Position numbers and translations under genes: made by a program
Shown: piece after piece, positions 41,764 to 57,526 of the stretch
How the letters are laid out: each line of letters opens with the position of its first letter
Position numbering within the stretch: position 1 is the first letter of the stretch
Notes under the pieces: generated by a model
Told to the model about the DNA's origin: nothing
Databases searched by the model: none
Seen by the model: the letters and a program-made list of their open reading frames with translations, nothing else
Assembly (NCBI GenBank): GCA_963812375.1
Contig: CAWEUW010000006.1
Location: 30,837 to 94,836 of the forward strand
Direction: 5' to 3'
Source: an uncultured Acidimicrobiia bacterium
GTDB taxonomy: Bacteria > Actinomycetota > Acidimicrobiia > Spongiisociales > UBA5794
DNA length: 64,000 nt

Positions 41764-42078
41764 GTGCGAGCCGGGCGGGTGGCGGTCGTCGTCGCCGGCC
41801 TGTGGCTGGTGGCTGCATCCTGCTCCGGCACCGAGACCGAGGAGGCCACCGGGGTCGTCGTCGACGTCACCGGCGACATCGTCACGGTGGATCGGTTCGC
41901 CATCCAGACCGCCGCCGGCGACCTGCTGGAGCTGGAGGTCGCCCCTGGGGTGGTGTTCGCCGACGGGGCCCCGATCGGGCACCTCTCGGAGCATCTCCAG
42001 ACCGGGGCGCCCGTGGTGGTCCGCTACGAGGTGCTCGACGACGGCAGCAGGGTGGTCCAGGCGATCGACGACGCCTGA
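41764..42078 (+). CDS. Small lipoprotein (hypothetical) at the end of the cta operon
   Basis: GTG 41764 lies 3 nt after the ctaG stop. Signal VAVVVAGLWLVAASCSG, then a beta-rich domain of about 85 aa. Confidence 0.5.
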   Translation: MRAGRVAVVVAGLWLVAASCSGTETEEATGVVVDVTGDIVTVDRFAIQTAAGDLLELEVAPGVVFADGAPIGHLSEHLQTGAPVVVRYEVLDDGSRVVQAIDDA

Positions 42079-42100
42079 CGCCCGGCGACCCGCGTCAGGC
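42073..42100. terminator. Bidirectional hairpin between convergent genes
   Basis: GCCTGACGC (42073-42081) pairs with GCGTCAGGC (42092-42100) across a 10-nt loop. The hairpin spans both convergent stop codons. No clear U-tract. Confidence 0.45.
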
Positions 42101-42833
42101 CGGCTCTTCGGAGCGGCTCTCCCAGGGCCGGTAGGCGAGGAGGGTGGCCCCGCCCAGCACGACGGCGCCGGCGACGGAGAACACGATGATGGCGGCGGTC
42201 CCCTCGAGGGCGAGGAGCAACTCGGCCAAGAGCGACGGCGAACCCGGCTACGAGGACGAGCGCCATGATCGAAGTGCCGATCGCCCGGCTCGCCTCGCGG
42301 ATCAGCGCCGCCGGGCTGGCCGGCCAGGCCTCGCCGCCGAGCCCGAGGACCTCGGGCCGGGCGAGCCGGTCGACGACGCCGGCGGTGACCGCTCCCGCCA
42401 CCGCCCCACCGATGAGCCCGCCGACGATCATGGCGGTCAGCGGGATGGTCACGATGCCGTCCACGCTCTCGCCGAACAGCAGGATCGTGGCCCGGATGAC
42501 CGCATACCCGAACAGGGCGAACACCGCGGCGGCGGCCGGGACGAGCCAGCGGAGCGGGAAACGGGGGGCGTCGGGCTCCGACTCCCGCCCGAAGGCGTAG
42601 ACGGCTGCGGCCACCCCGGCACCGGACACCAGCCCGGCGACGATCACCAGGAGATAGGTCCAGCCGGTGGAGGCGGTGAAGGCGAGATCGGCCGCGGCCG
42701 ACCCTTCCGATACCGGGGTGGCGGTGGCGGTGGGAAGGGCGAAGCGGCCACCGAGCACGGCCATCGCCGCCAGGGCGAGGAGAGCGCCGAGCAGAGCGCC
42801 CCATCCGGCCGTCCTGATCCGGGATGTCCGCAT
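42095..42833 (-). CDS. Polytopic membrane protein (hypothetical)
   Basis: At least five hydrophobic segments. A break near 42225 gives the tail ELLLALEGTAAIIVFSVAGAVVLGGATLLAYRPWESRSEEPA-TGA, with the stop complement at 42095-42097. Confidence 0.5.
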
Positions 42834-42929
42834 CGCCTCAGCGGCCTCTCGTCCGGCAACGGCGGCGAGTGTAACGGCTGGCGCTCAGGCACCCCCTCCG
42901 ATGTCTCACTTGTCCCCTCCCCCCTTGTT

Positions 42930-43089
42930 TCCCCTCCCCCTTTGGGGGAGGGGACCGAGGGCGAGCGTCAGCGAGCGGCACGTCTGGGGAGGGGGTTCTG
43001 GGGAGGGCGGCGGCGGCCAACCCCCTCCTCGTCTGCCGTGCTGGCCTTCGGCCCGTGTCGCAGCCACTCCTCCCCCACGGGGGGAGGAG
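42930..43089. repeat. Cluster of three G/C-tract hairpins upstream of the DUF559 gene
   Basis: TCCCCTCCCCC-TTT-GGGGGAGGGGA (42930-42954). GGGGAGGGGGTT...AACCCCCTCCTC (42986-43030). CTCCTCCCCC-ACG-GGGGGAGGAG (43067-43089). Confidence 0.8.
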
Positions 43090-43147
43090 AAATCGTGTGG
43101 AGGAGAAAGGGGTTGAAACACGTTCGTGTGGCAGGTATTGAGCACGG

Positions 43148-43543
43148 GTGGCCAAGTCCGATCGGGATTGGATCGAGTTGCGGGCTGCCGAACTCCGTCA
43201 GGCCATGCCCGAGGCCGAGGTGATCTTGTGGAGCGAGCTGCGGAGGCGGCAGCTAGGTGGGTACCGGTTCCGTCGCCAGTACGTGGTGGGTCGCGCCATC
43301 CTCGACTTCTATTGTCCGGAGCGTCGCCTGGCGATAGAAGTCGACGGCGCCGAGCACGACGTCGACCAAGACGAGCAACGCGACGTATGGCTCGCCGGAC
43401 AGGGCATCCAGGTAGTGCGATTCGACAACGAGGAGATCTACCGCGAGCTCAACGACGTCCTCGGTGACATCGTCGAACACCTCGAGGCCGGTCCCGGATG
43501 GCGACGATTTCCGGAGGATTCGGCGCCCGGCTCCGAGCAATGA
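43148..43543 (+). CDS. DUF559 (Vsr/restriction-endonuclease-like fold) protein
   Basis: Intact 131-aa ORF with AEVILWSELRRRQLGGYRFRRQYVVGRAILDFYCPERRLAIEVDGAEH. Confidence 0.85.
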   Translation: MAKSDRDWIELRAAELRQAMPEAEVILWSELRRRQLGGYRFRRQYVVGRAILDFYCPERRLAIEVDGAEHDVDQDEQRDVWLAGQGIQVVRFDNEEIYRELNDVLGDIVEHLEAGPGWRRFPEDSAPGSEQ

Positions 43544-43567
43544 TGTCTGACCTGCGGCGCCGGGCAC

Positions 43568-44461
43568 TCAGAAGCGGGTGCAGGCGTCGGGGGAGTAGAT
43601 GCCGCGGACGGCGCCCTCCGCCAAGGGGCCCCACAGGAGGAGGTTGCCGCTCTGACTGCTGCTCACCGTCCAGATCTCGCCGAGCTCCGGGTCGTCGGCC
43701 TGCTCGACGTCGAAACCGTCGTAGACCTCTTCGACGTTGCGGAACGAGTCGCCCAGCTTGATGCCCGACAGCGTTGCCAGCTCGGCCGCCTCGCTGGAGA
43801 ACCCGCCGTACGACAGGTCGAGCCGGTAGCCGCCCAAGAACTCCTGCCCGTCGGGGTCGACGACGACCACCGCGGCGAACGGTCCCCAGGCGACGATCCG
43901 CTCGATGTCACCGTCGCACACCCCGTACTCGCCGGTCGAGGTCCGCGGGCCGGTGTCCGAGCCCGGCTCGCCGAGGCTGGCGATCAGCCGCCCGATGGCC
44001 TCCTCGGCCGGCTGCCCGAGCAGGACCGGGCCGATCCCGTCGGCGGCGAGGGTGAGCTCTTCGATGGGCACCGGGTCGCCCTGGGCGGTGTACGGAGTCC
44101 CGCCGCCGTTCCCCGCCTGTGTGGTGCCACTCGGCTCCCCGGTGGTCGCCGTCCCGTTGTCATCGGGCGGGGTCGTGGTTCCGCCGTCCGGTGCGCCGGT
44201 GCTCCCCTCGGGTGCGACGGTGGTGCCGCCGGCTTCGCCGAGCCCGCCGCTGTCGCTGCTGAAGAGCTGGAAGAGGGCGATGCTGGCCACCACCAGGAGC
44301 AACCCGACCACCATGCCGGTGAGGAGCGGTGACCGTGGGGGAGGGCCTCCGGGCCCCTGCTTGGATGGCGGTCCCGCCGGTGGTCCCCCGCCGGGGGTGG
44401 AATGCCCCTCGTAGGGCTCGATCCCGGCGAAGGGGTCGTTGGGATCGAATCGGTCGCTCAC
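43568..44461 (-). CDS. Membrane-anchored protein, paralog A of a two-member family in this window
   Basis: Intact 297-aa ORF. Pro/Gly-rich cytoplasmic head, TM LLTGMVVGLLLVVASIALF, Thr/Gly-rich linker, and a C-domain of about 150 aa ending LLLWGPLAEGAVRGIYSPDACTRF. Confidence 0.6.
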   Translation of the reverse strand: MSDRFDPNDPFAGIEPYEGHSTPGGGPPAGPPSKQGPGGPPPRSPLLTGMVVGLLLVVASIALFQLFSSDSGGLGEAGGTTVAPEGSTGAPDGGTTTPPDDNGTATTGEPSGTTQAGNGGGTPYTAQGDPVPIEELTLAADGIGPVLLGQPAEEAIGRLIASLGEPGSDTGPRTSTGEYGVCDGDIERIVAWGPFAAVVVVDPDGQEFLGGYRLDLSYGGFSSEAAELATLSGIKLGDSFRNVEEVYDGFDVEQADDPELGEIWTVSSSQSGNLLLWGPLAEGAVRGIYSPDACTRF

Positions 44462-44558
44462 AGGAGCTCCTGGCTGGTCATCCGGGGCGCCACGACCGGC
44501 ATTGTACGGGGGGCCGGGACAAAGCCCGGGTTTGGCGATCGGCCATGCCCGGGGGTTG

Positions 44559-46484
44559 TCAGGAGGTCCGGGTGGGGGCGAGGTCGGGGAAGGCCTCGCT
44601 GAGTACCTGGTCGAAGGGCAGCACGGGCACGAGGACCATCTCCCCTGCCGAGGTGAGCTCGTCGGCGACCGGGATCTCGAGGCGCTCCAACTCGGCGACG
44701 TCGATCCCCCGCATGCTCCACATCAGGCTGAGGGCGTCGCCCATGCCCAAGCCTTCGTCGATGCTGAACGCCCCGGTGAGGCCGGCGACGGTTCGGGTGA
44801 GATCCTCGAACGAGTCGAGCCGGCTCAGCTCCGCGAACACCTGGAGGATCACGTCCTGCTGGCGCTGGTTGCGGGTCAGGTCGTTGACCCCCTCCATCGT
44901 CTGCCAGCGCCCGTCGACGAGCTCCTGGGTCCGCCGGGAGCGGACCCACGCCAGGGCCTGGGCCCCGGTGGCGTTGGTGCAGCCGGCGGGGAGCTGCAAC
45001 TCGGCACGCGAGTCGCGCACCGGGTAGTCGACGCAGATCTCCACGCCGCCCACCTGGTCGACGATCTCCTCGAACCCCTCGAAGTCGAACAGGGCGAAGT
45101 GGTCGATCTCGATGCCGGTGAACTGGCGGATGGCGAGCGCCACCAGGGCCGGTCCCTCGATGCCTTTGTCCGGGCAGCCCTCCAAGGCGCCGTTGATCTT
45201 GTCGAGGCTGTTGGTGCACGGGTTGTTGATGTACAGGTCACGGGGTATCGACACCATGACGGGGTCGCCGCCGTCTGCCGGGATGATGGTGAGGATGATC
45301 ACGTCGGCCAGCTGTCCGGACAGGTCGCTGCCCACGATGAGCAGCGACAGGAAGTCGCCCTCTGCGGTAGGGAGAGCGGCAACGGCATTGGCCGCCGCCT
45401 CGGGGAGCTCGCTGACATCGATGCCGTCGTCGGGCAGCGGCAGGACCTCCGAAGCGGCGGCGATGTCGATGCTGAGCCGGTCGACGTTGCGCCACGAGTT
45501 CCAGATCTGGACCCCGTTGAACAGGGCGTACCCCACCATCACCAGGAGGGCGGTGGCCAGGCCACGCTTCAGGCTGCGCAGGACCGGGTGCTGGTGGGCG
45601 GATGGCGGGGTCGGTGCCGCCTCGTTGACCAGGTAGCCGATCGGGGGGGCGCCGAGGCTGCGGAGCCGGTCGACGGACTGGCTCACCGTGCCCTTGTCCA
45701 TCGCCCGGGGGAGGACCAGCAGGGTCCCGTCGGCGAGCGCCCCGAGGGCGTCGATGGCCGGGCCACCCTCGACCGGGGTGTCGATGAGGACGACGTCGGC
45801 ACTGGTCGCCACGTCCTCGACCGCCGCCGCCACCTCCGAGCGCTGCAGCACCGGGGCGTCGGGGTCAGCCTGCCCCGCCGGGATGAACGGCAAGCGACTG
45901 GTCGAGTCGACCGACCACAGCCGGGAGGCCTCGCCCAGCGTCGCCTGCCCCTTGGCCAGCTCGACGAGCCCGGGCGAGACGCCGGTGTGGCCGAAGTTGC
46001 TGAGCCTGGCGTCGGTGATGTCCCCGTCGATCAGCAGGGTGCGCCGGCCGGCCCGGGTGGCGGCGACGGCGAGGTTGAGGGCGGCGGTGGTGGCCCCCTG
46101 ACCTTCGACCACGCCGGCGATCAGGAGGATCCGCCCCCGGGTCAGTGCCTCCATCCGGCTGGCGGCCCGCTGGTACGCCGCCGCCGCCGACGAGGTCGGC
46201 GTGGTGAGGGTCGGGGCCGGTGAGCCCGGGGTGTCGGGGATGCTCCCCAGGTTGGGGAGGTCGAGCAACTTGCCGACCGGCCGGGTCCCACCTGCGAGGT
46301 ACCAGGCGAACCAGAACAGCGCGGCCACCACCCCGCCCAGCGCGGCGGCGAGGATGGTCCCGGTGGTGGTGGGCCACAGCCGCAGCCCCACCGCGAACGC
46401 TCCCAGTCCCATCGCCACCGACACGAGGTTCGGCCACGCCAAGGCGCGGCGTAGCCGGTTGGGGTATGGATCGGCCTTGTTCAT
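44559..46484 (-). CDS. Fusion of a BY-kinase/MinD-like P-loop domain (degenerate Walker A) with a LytR-CpsA-Psr (LCP) domain
   Basis: Intact 641-aa ORF. Two N-terminal TM segments. P-loop-like GVVEGQGATTAALNLA with no Lys, then LLIDGD and VVLIDTP. A third TM is followed by the LCP core DVIILTIIP..VMVSIPRDLY, IDHFALFDFEGFEEIVDQVGGVEI, ALAWVRSRR. Confidence 0.75.
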   Translation of the reverse strand: MNKADPYPNRLRRALAWPNLVSVAMGLGAFAVGLRLWPTTTGTILAAALGGVVAALFWFAWYLAGGTRPVGKLLDLPNLGSIPDTPGSPAPTLTTPTSSAAAAYQRAASRMEALTRGRILLIAGVVEGQGATTAALNLAVAATRAGRRTLLIDGDITDARLSNFGHTGVSPGLVELAKGQATLGEASRLWSVDSTSRLPFIPAGQADPDAPVLQRSEVAAAVEDVATSADVVLIDTPVEGGPAIDALGALADGTLLVLPRAMDKGTVSQSVDRLRSLGAPPIGYLVNEAAPTPPSAHQHPVLRSLKRGLATALLVMVGYALFNGVQIWNSWRNVDRLSIDIAAASEVLPLPDDGIDVSELPEAAANAVAALPTAEGDFLSLLIVGSDLSGQLADVIILTIIPADGGDPVMVSIPRDLYINNPCTNSLDKINGALEGCPDKGIEGPALVALAIRQFTGIEIDHFALFDFEGFEEIVDQVGGVEICVDYPVRDSRAELQLPAGCTNATGAQALAWVRSRRTQELVDGRWQTMEGVNDLTRNQRQQDVILQVFAELSRLDSFEDLTRTVAGLTGAFSIDEGLGMGDALSLMWSMRGIDVAELERLEIPVADELTSAGEMVLVPVLPFDQVLSEAFPDLAPTRTS

Positions 46485-46600
46485 GGTGTATCGGGCTTCA
46501 TCGGGCTGGGGGCGTCATGGATCACCGGGGGGCGAGGGGCCCGCTCATCATACGGTGGCGTCGGACTTGTTCGGCCTCGTCCGGCAGGTCCGACGCCACC

Positions 46601-48232
46601 TCACCCGGAGGGTGTCGGGCCACCATCGCAGGGGTCGGGCGAGTAGATCCCGAGCACCGACCCGTCCGGCTCGGCTCGAGGAGACGGGCCCCCACAGGAG
46701 GGTGACCCCGTCGGAGCGCACCAGGATGAAGTGGAGGGAGCCGTCGATCTCCTCGTAGGAGATGTCGAACTCCGGATAGACCGACTCGAGGTGCTCGATC
46801 GTGTCGCCCAGCGACAGTTCGGAGAGGGTCGACAGCCCTGCGGTGGGGTGGGCGGCCGGCTCGTTGTCCAGGCGGTACCCGGCGAGGGCCCCGTCCTCGG
46901 GGGTGCCGGTGAACAGGACGGTGAAGGGGCCCCAGGTGGCGGTGAACCCGGGTTCGCCCGGGCACAGGCCGAAACCGCCGTCGTCGACGGTGTTGGCCGA
47001 TTCGGGCTGCCCCAGGGTCGCCACCAGGCGGCCCAGCCCGTCCGGGTCGCCGAACTCGATCGGGCTCACCGCGAAGGCGCCGAGTCGCAGGTCGCTGATG
47101 TCCACCGGGTTGCCCACCTCGGGGAACGGACCGGTGAGCAGGGTGGGATCGACTGTGGTCGTGGTGGGCTCGGGCCTCGTAGTGGTCGGCTCGGGGAGGG
47201 TGGTGCTCGGACCGGCGACAGCCTGCGACGTATTCACGGCTGGTGTCGTGGTGGTGCCGGCCACTTCCGCCGGGTCGTCCCGGGTGATCAGGGTGAGTGC
47301 CCCGAACCAGCCGGCGATCAGTACGGCGACCACGCCGGCGATGAGCAGCCGCTGCCCGGTGCGGCCCCGGCGGGGTGCGGGCGGAGGATCACCGACGCCG
47401 CCGTCGAGGTGGAGCGAGGCGTCGTCGATCGGATGGGCGGGTGGGGTCGGGGAGACCGGCCGCTCGCTCGCCGGCCGGTCGTTGGGGGGCCGGTCGCCGG
47501 GTCGGTCGTTCGGCGGGCCGACGTCGCCGGGGCGTGACGAGGGTCGGGTCGCCGCCGCCGCCGCAGCCGCAGCAGCAGCAGCAGCGACGGCGATGGTTGC
47601 ACTTCCGTGGCATCGGCGTCCACCGTCGCCGGTTCTCCGGGAGTCGCCTGGTCGTCCTCGTCCTCGTGCTCGGCGGGCGGAGGCTCGGCGGGAGCCTCGG
47701 GGACGGTCGACTCGCTGCAGCGCAGCCACGGTGGTGCCGCCACTTCGGCGGCATCTGCGTAGCCATCGCCGGTTCGCCTGGGCCGCCGGGTCGTCCTCGA
47801 CCTCGTCTCGTGCTCGGCAGACGGCTCGGCGGGAGCCTCGGGGACGGTCGCTGCGGTTGCAGCTGCGGCGGCCACCGCCGGCGGTGCCTCCACTTCGGCG
47901 GCATCTGCGTCCACTCGCCGGTTCGCCTTGGCCGGCCGGGGGTCGTCCTCCTGCTCGGCAGGCGAAGGCTCGGCGGGAGCCTCGGGGACGGTCGATGCGG
48001 CGGCAGCCGCCACGGGGACTGCCGCCGCCGCCACGGGGGCATCTGCCGAGTCATCGGTGCCGGTCGGCGTGGGAGGAGCTGGCGCCGGCTCTGGATCCTG
48101 GCCCGACGATGGTCGGGTCGTCGAGGTGACGACATGGCTGTCGATCCAACCCCGCTTGCAGGTCGGGCAGCGGGGCACGTCGAGCGGCCGCGGCGTCCCG
48201 CAGAACACACAGGGCGTGAGGTCGGCCGCCAT
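46601..48232 (-). CDS. Zinc-ribbon / acidic-repeat / poly-Ala / TM protein, paralog B of the 43568 gene
   Basis: ATG 48232 MAADLTPCVFCGTPRPLDVPRCPTCK, three repeats of about 47 aa, an A(12) run, TM LLIAGVVAVLIAGWFGAL. The C-domain aligns to paralog A (WGPF, GYRLD, LGD, LLWGP, GIYSPD.C). Breaks near 47650 and 46650. TGA complement at 46601-46603. Confidence 0.6.
47645..48060 (-). repeat. Three in-frame tandem repeats of 141-144 bp inside the paralog B gene
   Basis: GGCTCGGCGGGAGCCTCGGGGACGGTCG recurs at 47682, 47823 and 47967. CACTTCGGCGGCATCTGCGT recurs at 47741 and 47891. The encoded unit is STVPEAPAEP..AE.ED....DADAAEV. Confidence 0.85.
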
Positions 48233-48554
48233 GGCCGGCAAGCATACGGTGGCCCTGGTCGTAGCCCCGGCTTTCACTTACTCGGTCGGCGGGTGACGCC
48301 GATCGGTTTGTCCCCCATCGATCGTAAGCTCTACGGACTTCCTCCGCACCTCCCAGGATCCTCTTCCGGGGTGCACGGAGGGGCACTTTCTCGAGGAGAC
48401 CGGTGGCTGTGTCGAACCCGCACCAGTTGGGACATCGGGCCCGTCCCGGTGGGCCCCGGCGCGTCGGTGCGTCGAGATCGCCCGGCCGCAGCGATCGATC
48501 GAGGGACACCGGTTCGACATCGACATTCGGGTCGGTCGGTGACCCCGGGCTCCG

Positions 48555-51069
48555 TTGATGGAGGTCGAGACGCCGCCGGTGAGGACTCCCGATCGGCCCG
48601 AGTCGATCTGGTGGCGCCTGCTCACGCTGTGGGGGCTGCTCGGGGTGGGGATGATCCAACCCGTCCTCGACCTCTACGGGTCCAATCCCGAGGTGTTCAT
48701 CGCCGCCAGGGCGGGGACGCTTCGCATCCTGCTGTTCGTCGCCCTGGTCACGTTGGGCCCGGTTCTGCTGTGTGCCGCCATCCTCTTCGTGGCCGGGGGG
48801 ATCGGGCGCCGGGCCGGCGACATCGCCTACCGGGCCCTGCTCGCCGTTACCGGCTTCGTCGCCGCCTCGGCGGTGATGCACCAGGTGATGCCGGGCAGCA
48901 ACGTCACCGTGGTGCTGGCGATCCTCGTCGCCGGCGGGGTCGTCTGGCTGGAGGCACGGGTGGGATGGGCCCGCACCTGGCTCCGCATCCTCGCCCTCGT
49001 CGCCGTGGCCGCCCCGGTGCTGTTCCTCGGGTTCTCGGATGCCTCCGAGCTGGTCTGGCAGCCGGAGGCGGCCGTCGACACCTCGGTTTCGGTCGACGCC
49101 GCCACCCCGGTGGTCATCCTGGTCTTCGACGAGCTGCCGCTGTCGTCGCTGCTCGCCACCGACGGGTCCGTCAACGCCGACCTCTTCCCCAACTTCGCCA
49201 GGCTCGCCGCCGGCTCCCACTGGTTCAAGAACGGCCAGTCCAACTCGATCGCCACCACCAACAGCGTGCCCATCCTCGTCACCGGCAAGCTCGCCGAGGG
49301 GGCCCGGCCGACGTCACGCGACCATCCACTGAGCATCTACACGATGCTCGGCGACAGCTACGCCATGGACGTGCAGGAGACCATCACCAGCGTGTGCCCC
49401 AACTCGGTGTGCGCCGGCGAAGGCGGGGCCAGCGCCGCCTCGGCCGACGACCAGATCGGGGTTCCGGCCCTGCTTGCCGACGCCGCGGTCGTCTGGGGTC
49501 ATCTCACCCAACCACCCTTGGTCACCGGCCGGACTCCCGGCGATCGACGGCCGGTGGGGAGGGTTCGTCGGCGGTGGCGGCGGCGGCGACATCGGCGAAG
49601 GAGCCGGCCTTCCCCTGGCGCCATCAGGGGAACGGCTCCCCTGGGTGGACAAGATGCTCACCACCGCCGACAACCTCGTCGGAGCAGCCCCCAACACCCT
49701 CCACTACCTGCACGTGGTCGCCCCGCACATCCCGTGGCAGGCCAACCCGTCCGGCACCCAGTACGACCGTCCCGAGGATCTCGGCTCCAGCGTCACCGGG
49801 GTCGAGAACGGCTACTGGGTCGAGGACCCGACACGGGCCACCCAGGGATTCCAGCGCCACCTGTTCCAAACCGGGCTGGTGGACCGGCTCCTGGGTCGCA
49901 TCCTCGACTCGCTCGAGCAGAGCGGGATCTGGGACGAAGGGATCGTCGTGGTCACCGCCGACCACGGCGGATCGTTCGTCCCCGGCGAACACCGCCGCTG
50001 GGTGACCCCGAGCAACCTCGACGCCCTGTACCGGGTGCCGCTGTTCATCCGCATCCCCGGTCAGGACGGCGGTGAGGTCCACCTGGAGAGCGCCTACGTC
50101 ATCGATGTCCTCCCCACCGTGGTCGACCTGCTCGACGTCGAGCTCGGGCCGGAGTGGGAGATGGCCGGCCGATCGCTGTTCGACCCGGATCTCCCCACCG
50201 AACGCCCCCATGTGTACGACCACTTCACCGGCCACCGGGAGGCGCTGGGCGGCCCGGTCGACGGCCTCGACGCCGAGATCGCGGACAACTACGAGTTGAT
50301 CGCCGATCAGACGAGCTGGGCCGGGATCGCCGCCGTGGGGCCCTACGCCGACCTCGTCGGGCAGCCGGCCGTCTCCCTCGACCCCCGGTCGGTCGACGGG
50401 GTGGTGGCCGAGTTCGACCAGGCCGAACGGTACGCCGACCTCGACCCGGGCGCCGGCATCGTCCCCACCGTGCTGACCGGTCGGGTGAGCCTCCCTGACA
50501 CCATCGACGCCGGCGATGTCCTGGTCTCGGTCAACGGCACCGTGGCGGGCGCCGGGTACCTGGTGCGGGCCGGGGCCGGCACCGCGGACTTCAGCGCGGT
50601 GGTCCCCGAGGCGGCGTTCCGCCCGGGCGCCAACGAGGTGGTGCTCCTGATCCCCGGCCCGGACGGCGGTTGGGTCGCCGCCGGCGGGGGAACGGTCGCC
50701 CGGCTCGTGCTCCACGACGCCGACGGAGACGAGCTCCCGCTGAGCCCGCCGACCTCGCGGCGCGTGGTCATCGACCGCAGCACGGTGGCCGGTGACCAGC
50801 TCCAGGTGAAGGGATGGTCGGCCGACACGTCGGCGAAGGAGGTGCCCACCGAGATACTGGTGTTCTTCGGCGACGAGCTCGCCTTCACCGGCCCCCCCAA
50901 CCTGGAGCGCAGCGACGTCCCGGAATGGTTCGACAGCGAGGCCCTGGCGATGTCCGGCTTCGACATCTCCATCCCCGTCGCCGACATCCCAGAGGGCACA
51001 GAGCGGGTCACCGTGGTTGCCCGCTTCGGCGACGTCGCCGTCGCCGAGTACGGCACGATCACCGGCTGA
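48555..51069 (+). CDS. Membrane-bound sulfatase/LtaS-like alkaline-phosphatase-superfamily transferase with large C-terminal beta-rich region
   Basis: Five or six N-terminal TM segments. VVILVFDELP, SNSIATTNSVP, VVTADHGGSF. The N-part is in ORF 48555..50075 and the remainder in ORF 49474..51069, with a break near 49500. Confidence 0.7.
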
Positions 51070-51080
51070 CCGGGTGCGGC

Positions 51081-53111
<2,031 letters not shown>

Positions 53112-54584: not shown

Positions 54585-55017
54585 GCCGGCCGGTCAGCCG
54601 GCCGTCTACCCGGGCCCGGGCCGCCCACCGCCTTCAACTCCTCCTCCCGGCACGCCGGCCGTGGTCGACGCGGTCAATCCGGTAAGGTCGGAGCAGGTCG
54701 TGGAAGGGTTGGAGCATGCAGCTCGCCGGTCTCGTCTCGGGTGCCGCCGATCTGATCGGCGCCGAGGCCACGCTCGTCGAGGCGGCGACGATGATGGTGG
54801 AGCGATCCATCGACGCCTTCGCCGTCGTCGACGGCCGGAACCTGGTGGGGTTGTTCACCGAGCACGACCTCGTCTCGGCGGTGGCCGGTGGGGCCGACCT
54901 CGACTCGGACACCGTGGCCGACTGGATGGCGGAGTCACCCGACACCTTTCCCCCCGACGCCACTGTCGACGAGTCCGTCGCCTGGCTGATGGAGACCGGC
55001 TACCGCCACCTCCCTGT

Positions 55018-57526
<2,509 letters not shown>

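Follow-up and report, generated by a model that had tools for sequence, protein, structure and literature searches.

We analyzed a 64,000-nucleotide stretch of contig CAWEUW010000006.1 from an uncultured Acidimicrobiia bacterium (hereinafter the window), whose minus strand carries a gene for a 641-residue membrane protein combining, from N- to C-terminus, a predicted transmembrane (TM) hairpin, a degenerate domain of the bacterial tyrosine kinase (BY-kinase) type, a third TM helix (TM3), and a LytR-CpsA-Psr (LCP) ligase domain predicted to lie outside the membrane (Table 1). A preliminary description of this DNA, made from its letters, had singled out the open reading frame (ORF) as an intact one, leaving the strand unstated. 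The ORF (window 44559..46484, minus) begins with an ATG, has no internal stop codons, and shows a third-position GC content of 0.94, in line with the other real genes of this ~70% GC window. Every motif quoted in that description was located in the translation: GQGATT (residues 128-133), LLIDGD (150-155), and VVLIDTP (231-237) in the kinase-like half, and VSIPRDLY (411-418), IDHFALFDFEGF (460-471), GGVEI (479-483), and ALAWVRSRR (510-518) in the LCP half. In searches with domain profiles, the Pfam model LytR_cpsA_psr (PF03816) matched residues 393-553 (E=1.5e-29; 103.5 bits against a cutoff of 24.6), and the NCBIfam model TIGR00350 likewise matched the protein (1e-24; 87.5 bits against a cutoff of 62.3). 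For the N-terminal half, Pfam CbiA matched residues 122-307 at slightly under its gathering score (E=3.6e-5), and the BY-kinase model TIGR01007 matched residues 118-288 (3.9e-15) with 55.9 bits, under its curated cutoff of 108.05, while outranking the MinD, BcsQ, and ParA models of NCBIfam.

Conservation and distribution of the fusion

The protein is a genuine tripartite membrane protein that is widespread among metagenome-assembled genomes (MAGs) of Acidimicrobiia. A large protein collection yielded ~97 full-length homologs of ~620-690 residues at 39-99% identity; those bearing a name are labeled 'LCP family protein' and originate from MAGs of Acidimicrobiia. OY970227.1 ('uncultured Acidimicrobiia bacterium MFD06229.bin.1.171') shares 99% identity with the window. 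A lookup of the exact sequence of the window protein gave no record; the protein P0003 is 99% identical to it. From a scan of the GTDB species representatives, seeded with the full-length alignment and hence on the LCP motifs, we inspected the best 80 of 283 relatives: all of these are full-length single ORFs with both halves and come from MAGs, and they are mostly labeled Acidimicrobiia, Acidimicrobiaceae, or Actinomycetota, the few other labels being probably binning errors. Both halves are present at all 84 loci compared.

Apparent 1-nucleotide frameshifts in two neighboring genes (paralog A and the DsbH-like gene, see below) made it a fair worry that adjacent BY-kinase-like and LCP genes had been merged by a missed stop or an indel during assembly or annotation of an error-prone long-read MAG. 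At one orthologous locus (L008, 4001-5924; 98% identical), moreover, the product has 676 residues and a sharply divergent C-terminal half (dN 0.44), as would be expected if that assembly had a frameshift within its LCP region. Conservation across species removes this worry: the unbroken ~640-residue architecture recurs as the same single ORF in at least 80 species representatives and in ~97 protein clusters, which stem from independent projects and different sequencing platforms and reach as low as 39% identity, and the linker and TM3 are themselves conserved across the family alignment of 48 proteins, leaving practically no probability for an artifact.

A search with the kinase-like domain in a representative library of 1.84 billion proteins set the fusion family apart at 195 bits or more, with the canonical kinases of polysaccharide co-polymerase class 2a (PCP-2a; ~500-580 residues) scoring at most 177 bits. 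Among the 150 closest representatives, all matches above this gap start at about residue 70 of the family and are full-length proteins of 643-661 residues, fragments, or short stand-alone forms. No LCP domain was found in the 10 long proteins scanned (nine non-family relatives and one truncated family member), which speaks against the architecture being already common; within these 150 representatives, it appears confined to one clade. Checked against Pfam, the LCP model matches all 48 aligned family members and CbiA matches 38 of the 48 at E≤1e-3, the window's own CbiA match lying below the gathering score, and the combination of CbiA with LCP is already visible in databases, without remark. 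The view that this architecture was undescribed holds for the literature that we searched, including a 2025 review on capsule attachment and a 2008 phylogeny of LCP proteins, in which no fusion of a P-loop domain to an LCP domain is described; database annotation of the family stops at the name of its LCP half. Both modules are of known kinds, and their combination in a single chain is undescribed in the searched literature.

Table 1. Features of the fusion gene and its conserved neighbors, in window coordinates.
Feature	Position	Strand	Evidence
Fusion gene: TM hairpin, BY pseudokinase, TM3, and LCP domain	44559..46484	-	ORF and translation, full-length homologs, AF2 model
Predicted N-terminal TM hairpin, residues 17-65, with an outside loop of 3-4 residues	46290..46436	-	AF2 helices, hydropathy, flanking charges
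Juxtamembrane segment and BY-kinase-fold domain, predicted cytoplasmic, residues 70-295	45600..46277	-	PDB profile, Foldseek, identity to P0139
Degenerate Walker A GQGATT, residues 128-133, with Ala for the catalytic Lys	46086..46103	-	Family alignment, 84 loci
TM3, residues 308-330, after the conserved cytoplasmic R-S-L-K-R	45495..45563	-	AF2 helix, hydropathy, alignment
LCP phosphotransferase domain, predicted extracytoplasmic, residues 378-641	44562..45353	-	Pfam, TIGR00350, Foldseek, conserved residues
Paralog A, upstream: Zn-ribbon N-terminus, repeat-rich region, TM, Thr/Pro stalk, extracytoplasmic domain of ~170 residues	46548..48277	-	ORFs 47318..48277 and 46548..47729
Paralog B, downstream, 297 residues: conserved cytoplasmic tail, TM, Thr-rich stalk, ~170-residue domain as in A	43568..44461	-	Paralogy, AF2
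Polytopic membrane protein, the usual end of the cluster	42024..42833	-	Homologs after paralog B

Predicted topology and structure

An AlphaFold2 (AF2) model of the fusion protein built on the 48 family sequences has a mean predicted local distance difference test score (pLDDT) of 84.7 and a predicted template modeling score (pTM) of 0.63. Its long helices span residues 17-36, 40-65, and 300-332, and the Kyte-Doolittle hydropathy peaks fall at 42-60 and 309-327; TM1 (18-37) is only moderately hydrophobic, for which reason the N-terminal hairpin stays a prediction. Positive charges flank these segments, with RLRR before TM1, R68/K72 after TM2, and RSLKR before TM3. Hydropathy and charges together predict an N-in hairpin, place the P-loop domain that follows it in the cytoplasm, and put the LCP domain outside after TM3, in agreement with the two N-terminal TM helices and the third one ahead of the LCP domain recognized in the preliminary description. 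The kinase-like domain passes via a Pro/Ala-rich linker straight into TM3, the flank of which is conserved across the family (R303 is Arg in 43/48 and K306 is Lys in 41/48 proteins, while R307 is present in all 48). With this predicted topology, each domain of the fusion is located where its family normally is, the extracytoplasmic position of LCP domains being known by experiment from MsrR-PhoA fusions (PMC2632651). The N-terminal hairpin resembles TM1 and TM2 of the PCP-2a proteins minus their periplasmic domain. In structural searches of the model with Foldseek, the two halves match BY-kinases and LCP ligases, respectively.

A degenerate BY-kinase domain under purifying selection

A sequence profile built from 24 family members over residues 70-300 recovered from the PDB the BY-kinases CapA1B1 (9e-27), BceF (3e-26), and Wzc (2e-23), and also VpsO, with MinD falling behind (3.5e-19). 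Consequently, of the BY-kinase/MinD-like label given earlier to this domain, the first part stands and the second does not. Foldseek against the PDB aligned the kinase-like half with CapA1B1 (4jlv) at a target-normalized TM-score of 0.86 and a root-mean-square deviation of 2.1, and also with Wzc (7nhr) and BceF (6z0p). The PDB alignment begins within the juxtamembrane activator peptide that derives from CapA, so the homology extends to the segment following TM2. The closest canonical relative compared, the actinobacterial BY-kinase P0139, shares 33% identity over residues 73-287. This and the other canonical BY-kinases compared (P0113, P0117-P0119, P0142, and P0144) display GEGK[ST][ST] or GDGKT in the Walker A motif and a DGDLRxP motif, and several of them have a Tyr-rich tail such as YGYGY.

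In the fusion protein, the Walker A motif reads GQGATT in place of GxGK[ST], as the preliminary description had pointed out. Across the 84 loci it takes the form GxG[A/T/S][S/T]x and is Lys-less throughout, and in the 48-sequence alignment the Lys is again missing from every protein, with position 131 occupied by Ala (37), Thr (4), Pro (4), Ser (2), or Gln (1). What is conserved in the orthologs is therefore the loss of the Lys, with Ala itself in 37 of the 48, and none of them carries a normal GKT P-loop; judging from the alignment, this loss is ancestral to the fusion family. Nor does the family have the deviant Walker A of MinD and ParA (KGGxxK[ST]): its alignment shows a Lys at neither position of that motif. 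The DxD of the Walker A' motif is retained (D153 in 48/48, D155 in 45/48), while the Arg following it is variable. In the Walker B motif (VVLIDTP in the window, versus hhhhDxxP), Asp at position 235 is kept in 40/48 proteins and replaced by Asn in the other eight. The positions equivalent to the EX2RX2R oligomerization motif (102/105/108) are mostly A, Q, and A, with no Glu at 102. A C-terminal Tyr cluster, already reported as missing, was not found in the protein, which has only seven Tyr residues, none of them clustered. The conserved parts of the pocket comprise G128, G130, T/S132 and T133 (the Walker A Thr/Ser being present in 100%), D153/D155, and, for the most part, D235. The earlier reading of a probably inactive nucleotide-binding module agrees with the loss of the Walker A Lys and the Walker A' Arg; the P-loop Gly residues, the DxD, and, in most members, Walker B are kept.

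Measured against two ~81%-identical orthologs, the dN/dS ratio (omega) of the kinase-like domain is 0.09 and 0.18, compared with 0.20 and 0.15 in the LCP domain; more distant pairs were ignored, their dS being saturated. These low values indicate that the kinase-like domain is under strong purifying selection, at least as strong as that on the LCP domain, and is not decaying. As the domain lacks the functional hallmarks of BY-kinases and scores below the cutoff of their hidden Markov model (HMM), we name it the BY pseudokinase domain rather than a BY-kinase.

The LCP domain

The presence of a full LCP domain after the third TM helix, claimed in the preliminary description, is confirmed by the Pfam match and by the folds recovered with Foldseek. 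The top structural match of this half is Actinomyces oris LcpA (5v8c; E=3.4e-18, 27% identity, target-normalized TM-score 0.77), followed by TagV, TagT, Cps2A, and Staphylococcus aureus LcpA. The matches 6uf3 and 6uex reach target-normalized TM-scores of 0.81 and 0.82, respectively. D394, R415, D416, and R538 are present in all 48 aligned proteins, and R515, R517, D535, and Q542 in 47 of them. We take this Asp/Arg set to be equivalent to D234, R267, R362, D371, and R374 of Cps2A. Given that these catalytic residues are invariant or nearly so, the LCP half looks active. Three Cys residues (423, 437, and 484) are invariant and a fourth (502) is found in 47/48; their conservation fits two possible extracytoplasmic disulfides and an oxidizing compartment. 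By its score above the HMM threshold in all 48 family members, its Asp/Arg set, its alpha-beta-alpha fold, and its predicted outside location after a TM anchor, this half conforms to the LCP family.

Gene neighborhood of the fusion

In four loci at 40-99% identity (L001 to L004), the gene order is sigma-70 (-), DsbH-type thioredoxin (+), paralog A (+), fusion (+), paralog B (+), polytopic membrane protein (+), and a caa3 cytochrome oxidase operon (-). The flanking proteins A and B are paralogs (37% identity, 1e-28), both of them bitopic, with a long Thr/Pro-rich stalk and a ~170-residue domain with two conserved Cys residues. Their cytoplasmic tails carry motifs of their own: a zinc-ribbon-like CxxCG...CPxCG in A and a conserved ...PPRSPLLTG in B. 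Among the loci of the 80 species, a gene of the A/B type ends within 400 nucleotides upstream of the fusion gene in 73/75 and one lies downstream in 67/70. A homolog of the polytopic protein comes after paralog B in each of L001-L004 and, of the 60 loci with sufficient flank, in 39. Neither A nor B matches any Pfam or NCBIfam family, and the polytopic protein has no Pfam match. The ~170-residue domain of paralog B is beta-rich and modeled by AF2 with pLDDT >94 (model m9e5c271f932c); Foldseek found no PDB match for it at E<0.001, and the domain common to A and B may represent an unclassified fold. No phosphatase and no Wzz/PCP domain was found in the four neighborhoods inspected (L001 to L004). 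A scan for promoters and terminators across 42000-48500 gave nothing usable in this 70% GC DNA.

We considered and rejected a link to a glycan-synthesis cluster: L001 has Bac_transf and carbamoyltransferase genes ~8 kb off, which are absent from the window and from L002-L004. Synteny with L001 (1-1858) breaks from window position 54621, where the window and L002-L004 have a HerA/DUF87-like gene (54935-57526, - in the window) and L001 instead has the carbamoyltransferase and the Bac_transf phosphoglycosyltransferase.

Several further observations concern the sequence around the cluster. Paralog A looks broken in the window, where an ORF for the Zn-ribbon N-terminus (47318-48277) and one for the TM, stalk, and domain (46548-47729) overlap in different frames; near its 3′ end, a 1-nucleotide insertion relative to L001 replaces the conserved ...GIYSPDPC terminus. 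Indels from sequencing or assembly may account for these breaks. Within the Ala/Pro/Glu-rich, cytoplasmic part of the same protein lies a 141-nucleotide tandem repeat (window 47600-48005; 2.8 copies, 77% matches), and a 27-nucleotide repeat is found at 47468-47531. The DsbH-type thioredoxin gene (51081-53037, -) is likewise split, in the window into overlapping ORFs of 492 and 358 residues and in L001 into 383 + 271 residues, whereas it is a single ORF of 677-695 residues in L002 and L003. Between the DsbH-like gene and paralog A, the window and L001 have a sulfatase/LTA-synthase-like gene (49474-51069, +; PF00884, with weak matches to LtaS and YejM) and small hypothetical genes (48827-49336, -), which are absent there in L002-L004. 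Between paralog B and the polytopic gene, the window has an insertion of ~690 nucleotides (42881-43566) relative to the 97%-identical L001, with an ORF (43148-43543, +) for a 131-residue protein matching DUF559 (PF04480, 9.4e-33).

Stand-alone forms and other relatives

Stand-alone pseudokinases of 255-259 residues (P0127, P0131, and P0132) are predicted to be soluble, with no TM and no LCP domain; their Walker A and B motifs are scrambled, Walker B being lost in versions such as LVLLSLPQ and LLIIVVPI. Their genes (L085, 6001-6768; L086, 1823-2602; L087, 319-1089) lie between A and B, where other lineages have the fusion gene, and the three contigs keep the order DsbH, A, pseudokinase, B, polytopic. 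LCP-only relatives of ~365 residues (P0098-P0112) share 47% identity with the TM3 and LCP half. Their contexts are mixed: one apparently has genes of A-like and B-like size on either side and lies upstream of CtaG, another beside a sigma-70 gene, and a third in a GT2/GT4 cluster. The occurrence of pseudokinase and LCP domain as fused or single proteins at seemingly one locus represents the classic fusion/fission behavior of functionally linked proteins.

The search also brought up other unusual proteins. P0120, a PCP-2a-like protein of 750 residues, has a Walker A motif (GVGSSF) that is likewise Lys-less; P0137, P0140, and P0143 are among several proteins of 842-925 residues with two tandem BY-kinase domains; and P0130 (405 residues) joins a histidine-kinase-like N-terminus to the pseudokinase domain of the fusion family, possibly a chimeric call.

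Functional interpretation

The best explanation for this protein, and one that we consider probable, is that its LCP domain is an active transferase anchored to a BY pseudokinase that serves as a scaffold in the manner of EcpK and HfsB. As a Mg-dependent phosphotransferase, the LCP domain would transfer a glycopolymer linked to polyprenyl-pyrophosphate to peptidoglycan or to some other acceptor in the envelope. The pseudokinase domain on the cytoplasmic side would act, by analogy, through protein-protein contacts in the absence of a phosphorylation cycle, and so tie the ligase into a fixed membrane complex. Its likeliest partners would be the conserved tails of A and B, docking as the tails of CapA and EpsV do on CapB and EcpK, and the downstream polytopic protein may join the complex, so that ligation would take place at a set location or within a set assembly. 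We infer that the two halves are in this manner coupled across the membrane, as the preliminary description had proposed. The scaffold reading draws by analogy on precedents from several systems: EcpK and HfsB are BY pseudokinases and proposed scaffolds that bind the cytoplasmic tail of a membrane partner (PMC12004946); CpsCD recruit capsule enzymes, with CpsD mainly a scaffold whose kinase activity is dispensable for growth (PMC13463712); and CapA1 enhances the ligation catalyzed by LcpC, for which the authors suggest an interaction complex of the two (PMC6441080).

Certain observations weigh against this explanation. The retained P-loop Gly residues, Thr/Ser, DxD, and Walker B Asp (40/48) would leave room for nucleotide or Mg binding. 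The loss of EX2RX2R argues against a canonical octameric ring. Genes for glycopolymer biosynthesis, a flippase, or a polymerase are not conserved beside the cluster. Finally, all members of the fusion family come from MAGs.

We put forward more tentatively, as a possible though doubtful extension, that the fusion protein is the hub of an undescribed envelope module of Acidimicrobiia consisting of A, the fusion, B, and the polytopic protein, in which the dead BY-kinase organizes a platform around the LCP enzyme by binding the tails of A and B. Such a platform could link a wall polymer to particular sites or, alternatively, place glycans on the Thr-rich stalks of the partners. If this were true, the protein would be the first demonstrated case of an LCP enzyme connected to the cytoplasm through a pseudoenzyme covalently joined to it.

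The main rival, which we regard as rather unlikely, is a nucleotide-sensing switch: the Lys-less P-loop would bind ATP, ADP, or another nucleotide without turnover, and nucleotide-dependent di- or oligomerization, as in MinD, ParA, and BY-kinases, would gate or relocate the ligase according to the energy or precursor state. The only partly degenerate pocket (with G128, G130, T/S132, T133, D153/D155, and D235 largely kept) and the strong purifying selection on the whole domain speak for this; however, a P-loop Lys occurs in 0/48 proteins and 0/84 loci, and the position corresponding to a signature lysine bears no conserved basic residue. Further, the stand-alone forms in the same slot have lost Walker B and scrambled Walker A further and yet persist, suggesting a conserved function that is independent of the pocket.

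Still less likely, in our estimate, is an LCP enzyme that glycosylates proteins, placing a glycan on the Thr/Pro-rich stalks of A and B while the pseudokinase holds enzyme and substrates together. A. oris LcpA acts in protein glycosylation (GspA), and it is the best structural match of the LCP half (5v8c); moreover, A and B flank the fusion almost universally and have long, disordered Thr/Pro-rich stalks. Against this, the peptidoglycan-ligating TagV, TagT, and Cps2A score close behind in Foldseek, and Thr/Pro stalks often serve as spacers in the surface proteins of actinobacteria. An active non-canonical tyrosine kinase phosphorylating its partners, with a basic residue from elsewhere in the protein standing in for the Walker A Lys by analogy with WNK kinases, could draw on the unexplained family-specific conserved residues R188 and W190 near the pocket (ASRLW motif), but is very improbable given the missing Tyr cluster and Walker A' Arg, the Walker B Asn in 8/48, and the lack of a phosphatase gene in the four neighborhoods inspected.

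Returning to the scaffolded transferase, the retention of the covalent fusion across a whole actinobacterial clade provides Rosetta-stone evidence that the two modules form one physical unit. This bears on how LCP enzymes are positioned and coordinated with polymer synthesis, for which the prior hints of cooperation with BY-kinases, namely those from CapA1-LcpC and from recruitment by CpsCD, were indirect, and suggests that LCP ligases are positioned by kinase-like scaffolds. That the kinase half is dead-looking and yet strongly conserved also supports the emerging view of BY-kinase domains as largely scaffolds. The fusion protein offers a compact single-chain object for structural study of an LCP-scaffold complex, and points to two uncharacterized partner families and a domain without a match among solved structures, in a class whose cell wall is essentially unknown.

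Comparison with known systems

Like the canonical LCP ligases (Cps2A, TagT/U/V, S. aureus LcpA, A. oris LcpA, and mycobacterial Lcp1), the fusion protein has the LCP fold and Asp/Arg set, predicted outside after a TM helix; none of these is described with a cytoplasmic P-loop module of ~300 residues and two extra TM helices. With the PCP-2a BY-kinases, such as Escherichia coli Wzc and P0139, it shares the order TM1, TM2, juxtamembrane segment, P-loop domain. It differs from them in having no Wzz/GNVR domain between the TM helices, no Lys, EX2RX2R, or Tyr tail, and in the addition of TM3 and the LCP domain at the C-terminus.

The same modules, an extracellular LCP enzyme and a membrane-anchored BY-kinase, meet in CpsA with CpsC/CpsD of streptococci and in LcpC with CapA1/CapB1 of S. 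aureus. In CpsC/CpsD and CapA1/CapB1, the juxtamembrane segment contacts the kinase domain, and the fusion has a homologous segment. Those systems consist of separate polypeptides with an active kinase bearing a Tyr cluster, a cognate phosphatase, and an extracellular PCP domain on CpsC or CapA. In contrast, the fusion is one chain, with the PCP loop cut to 3-4 residues and the kinase motifs dead, and the four neighborhoods inspected hold no nearby phosphatase.

EcpK of Myxococcus xanthus and HfsB of Caulobacter crescentus likewise combine a BY-kinase fold with the disappearance of the Tyr tail and the loss of catalytic motifs, a loss that is partial in the fusion. Both stand alone as soluble proteins and are partnered, in the Wzx/Wzy pathways of Gram-negative bacteria, with a PCP-2 that lacks a kinase; no Wzz/GNVR domain that would mark a PCP-2 partner was found in the fusion protein or its inspected neighbors, and an EcpK-like layout is seen only in the minority stand-alone forms P0127, P0131, and P0132. 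Unlike EcpK and HfsB, the pseudokinase domain of the fusion family sits between TM segments, is joined to an LCP enzyme, belongs to a monoderm lineage, and has kept the DxD and, in most members, Walker B.

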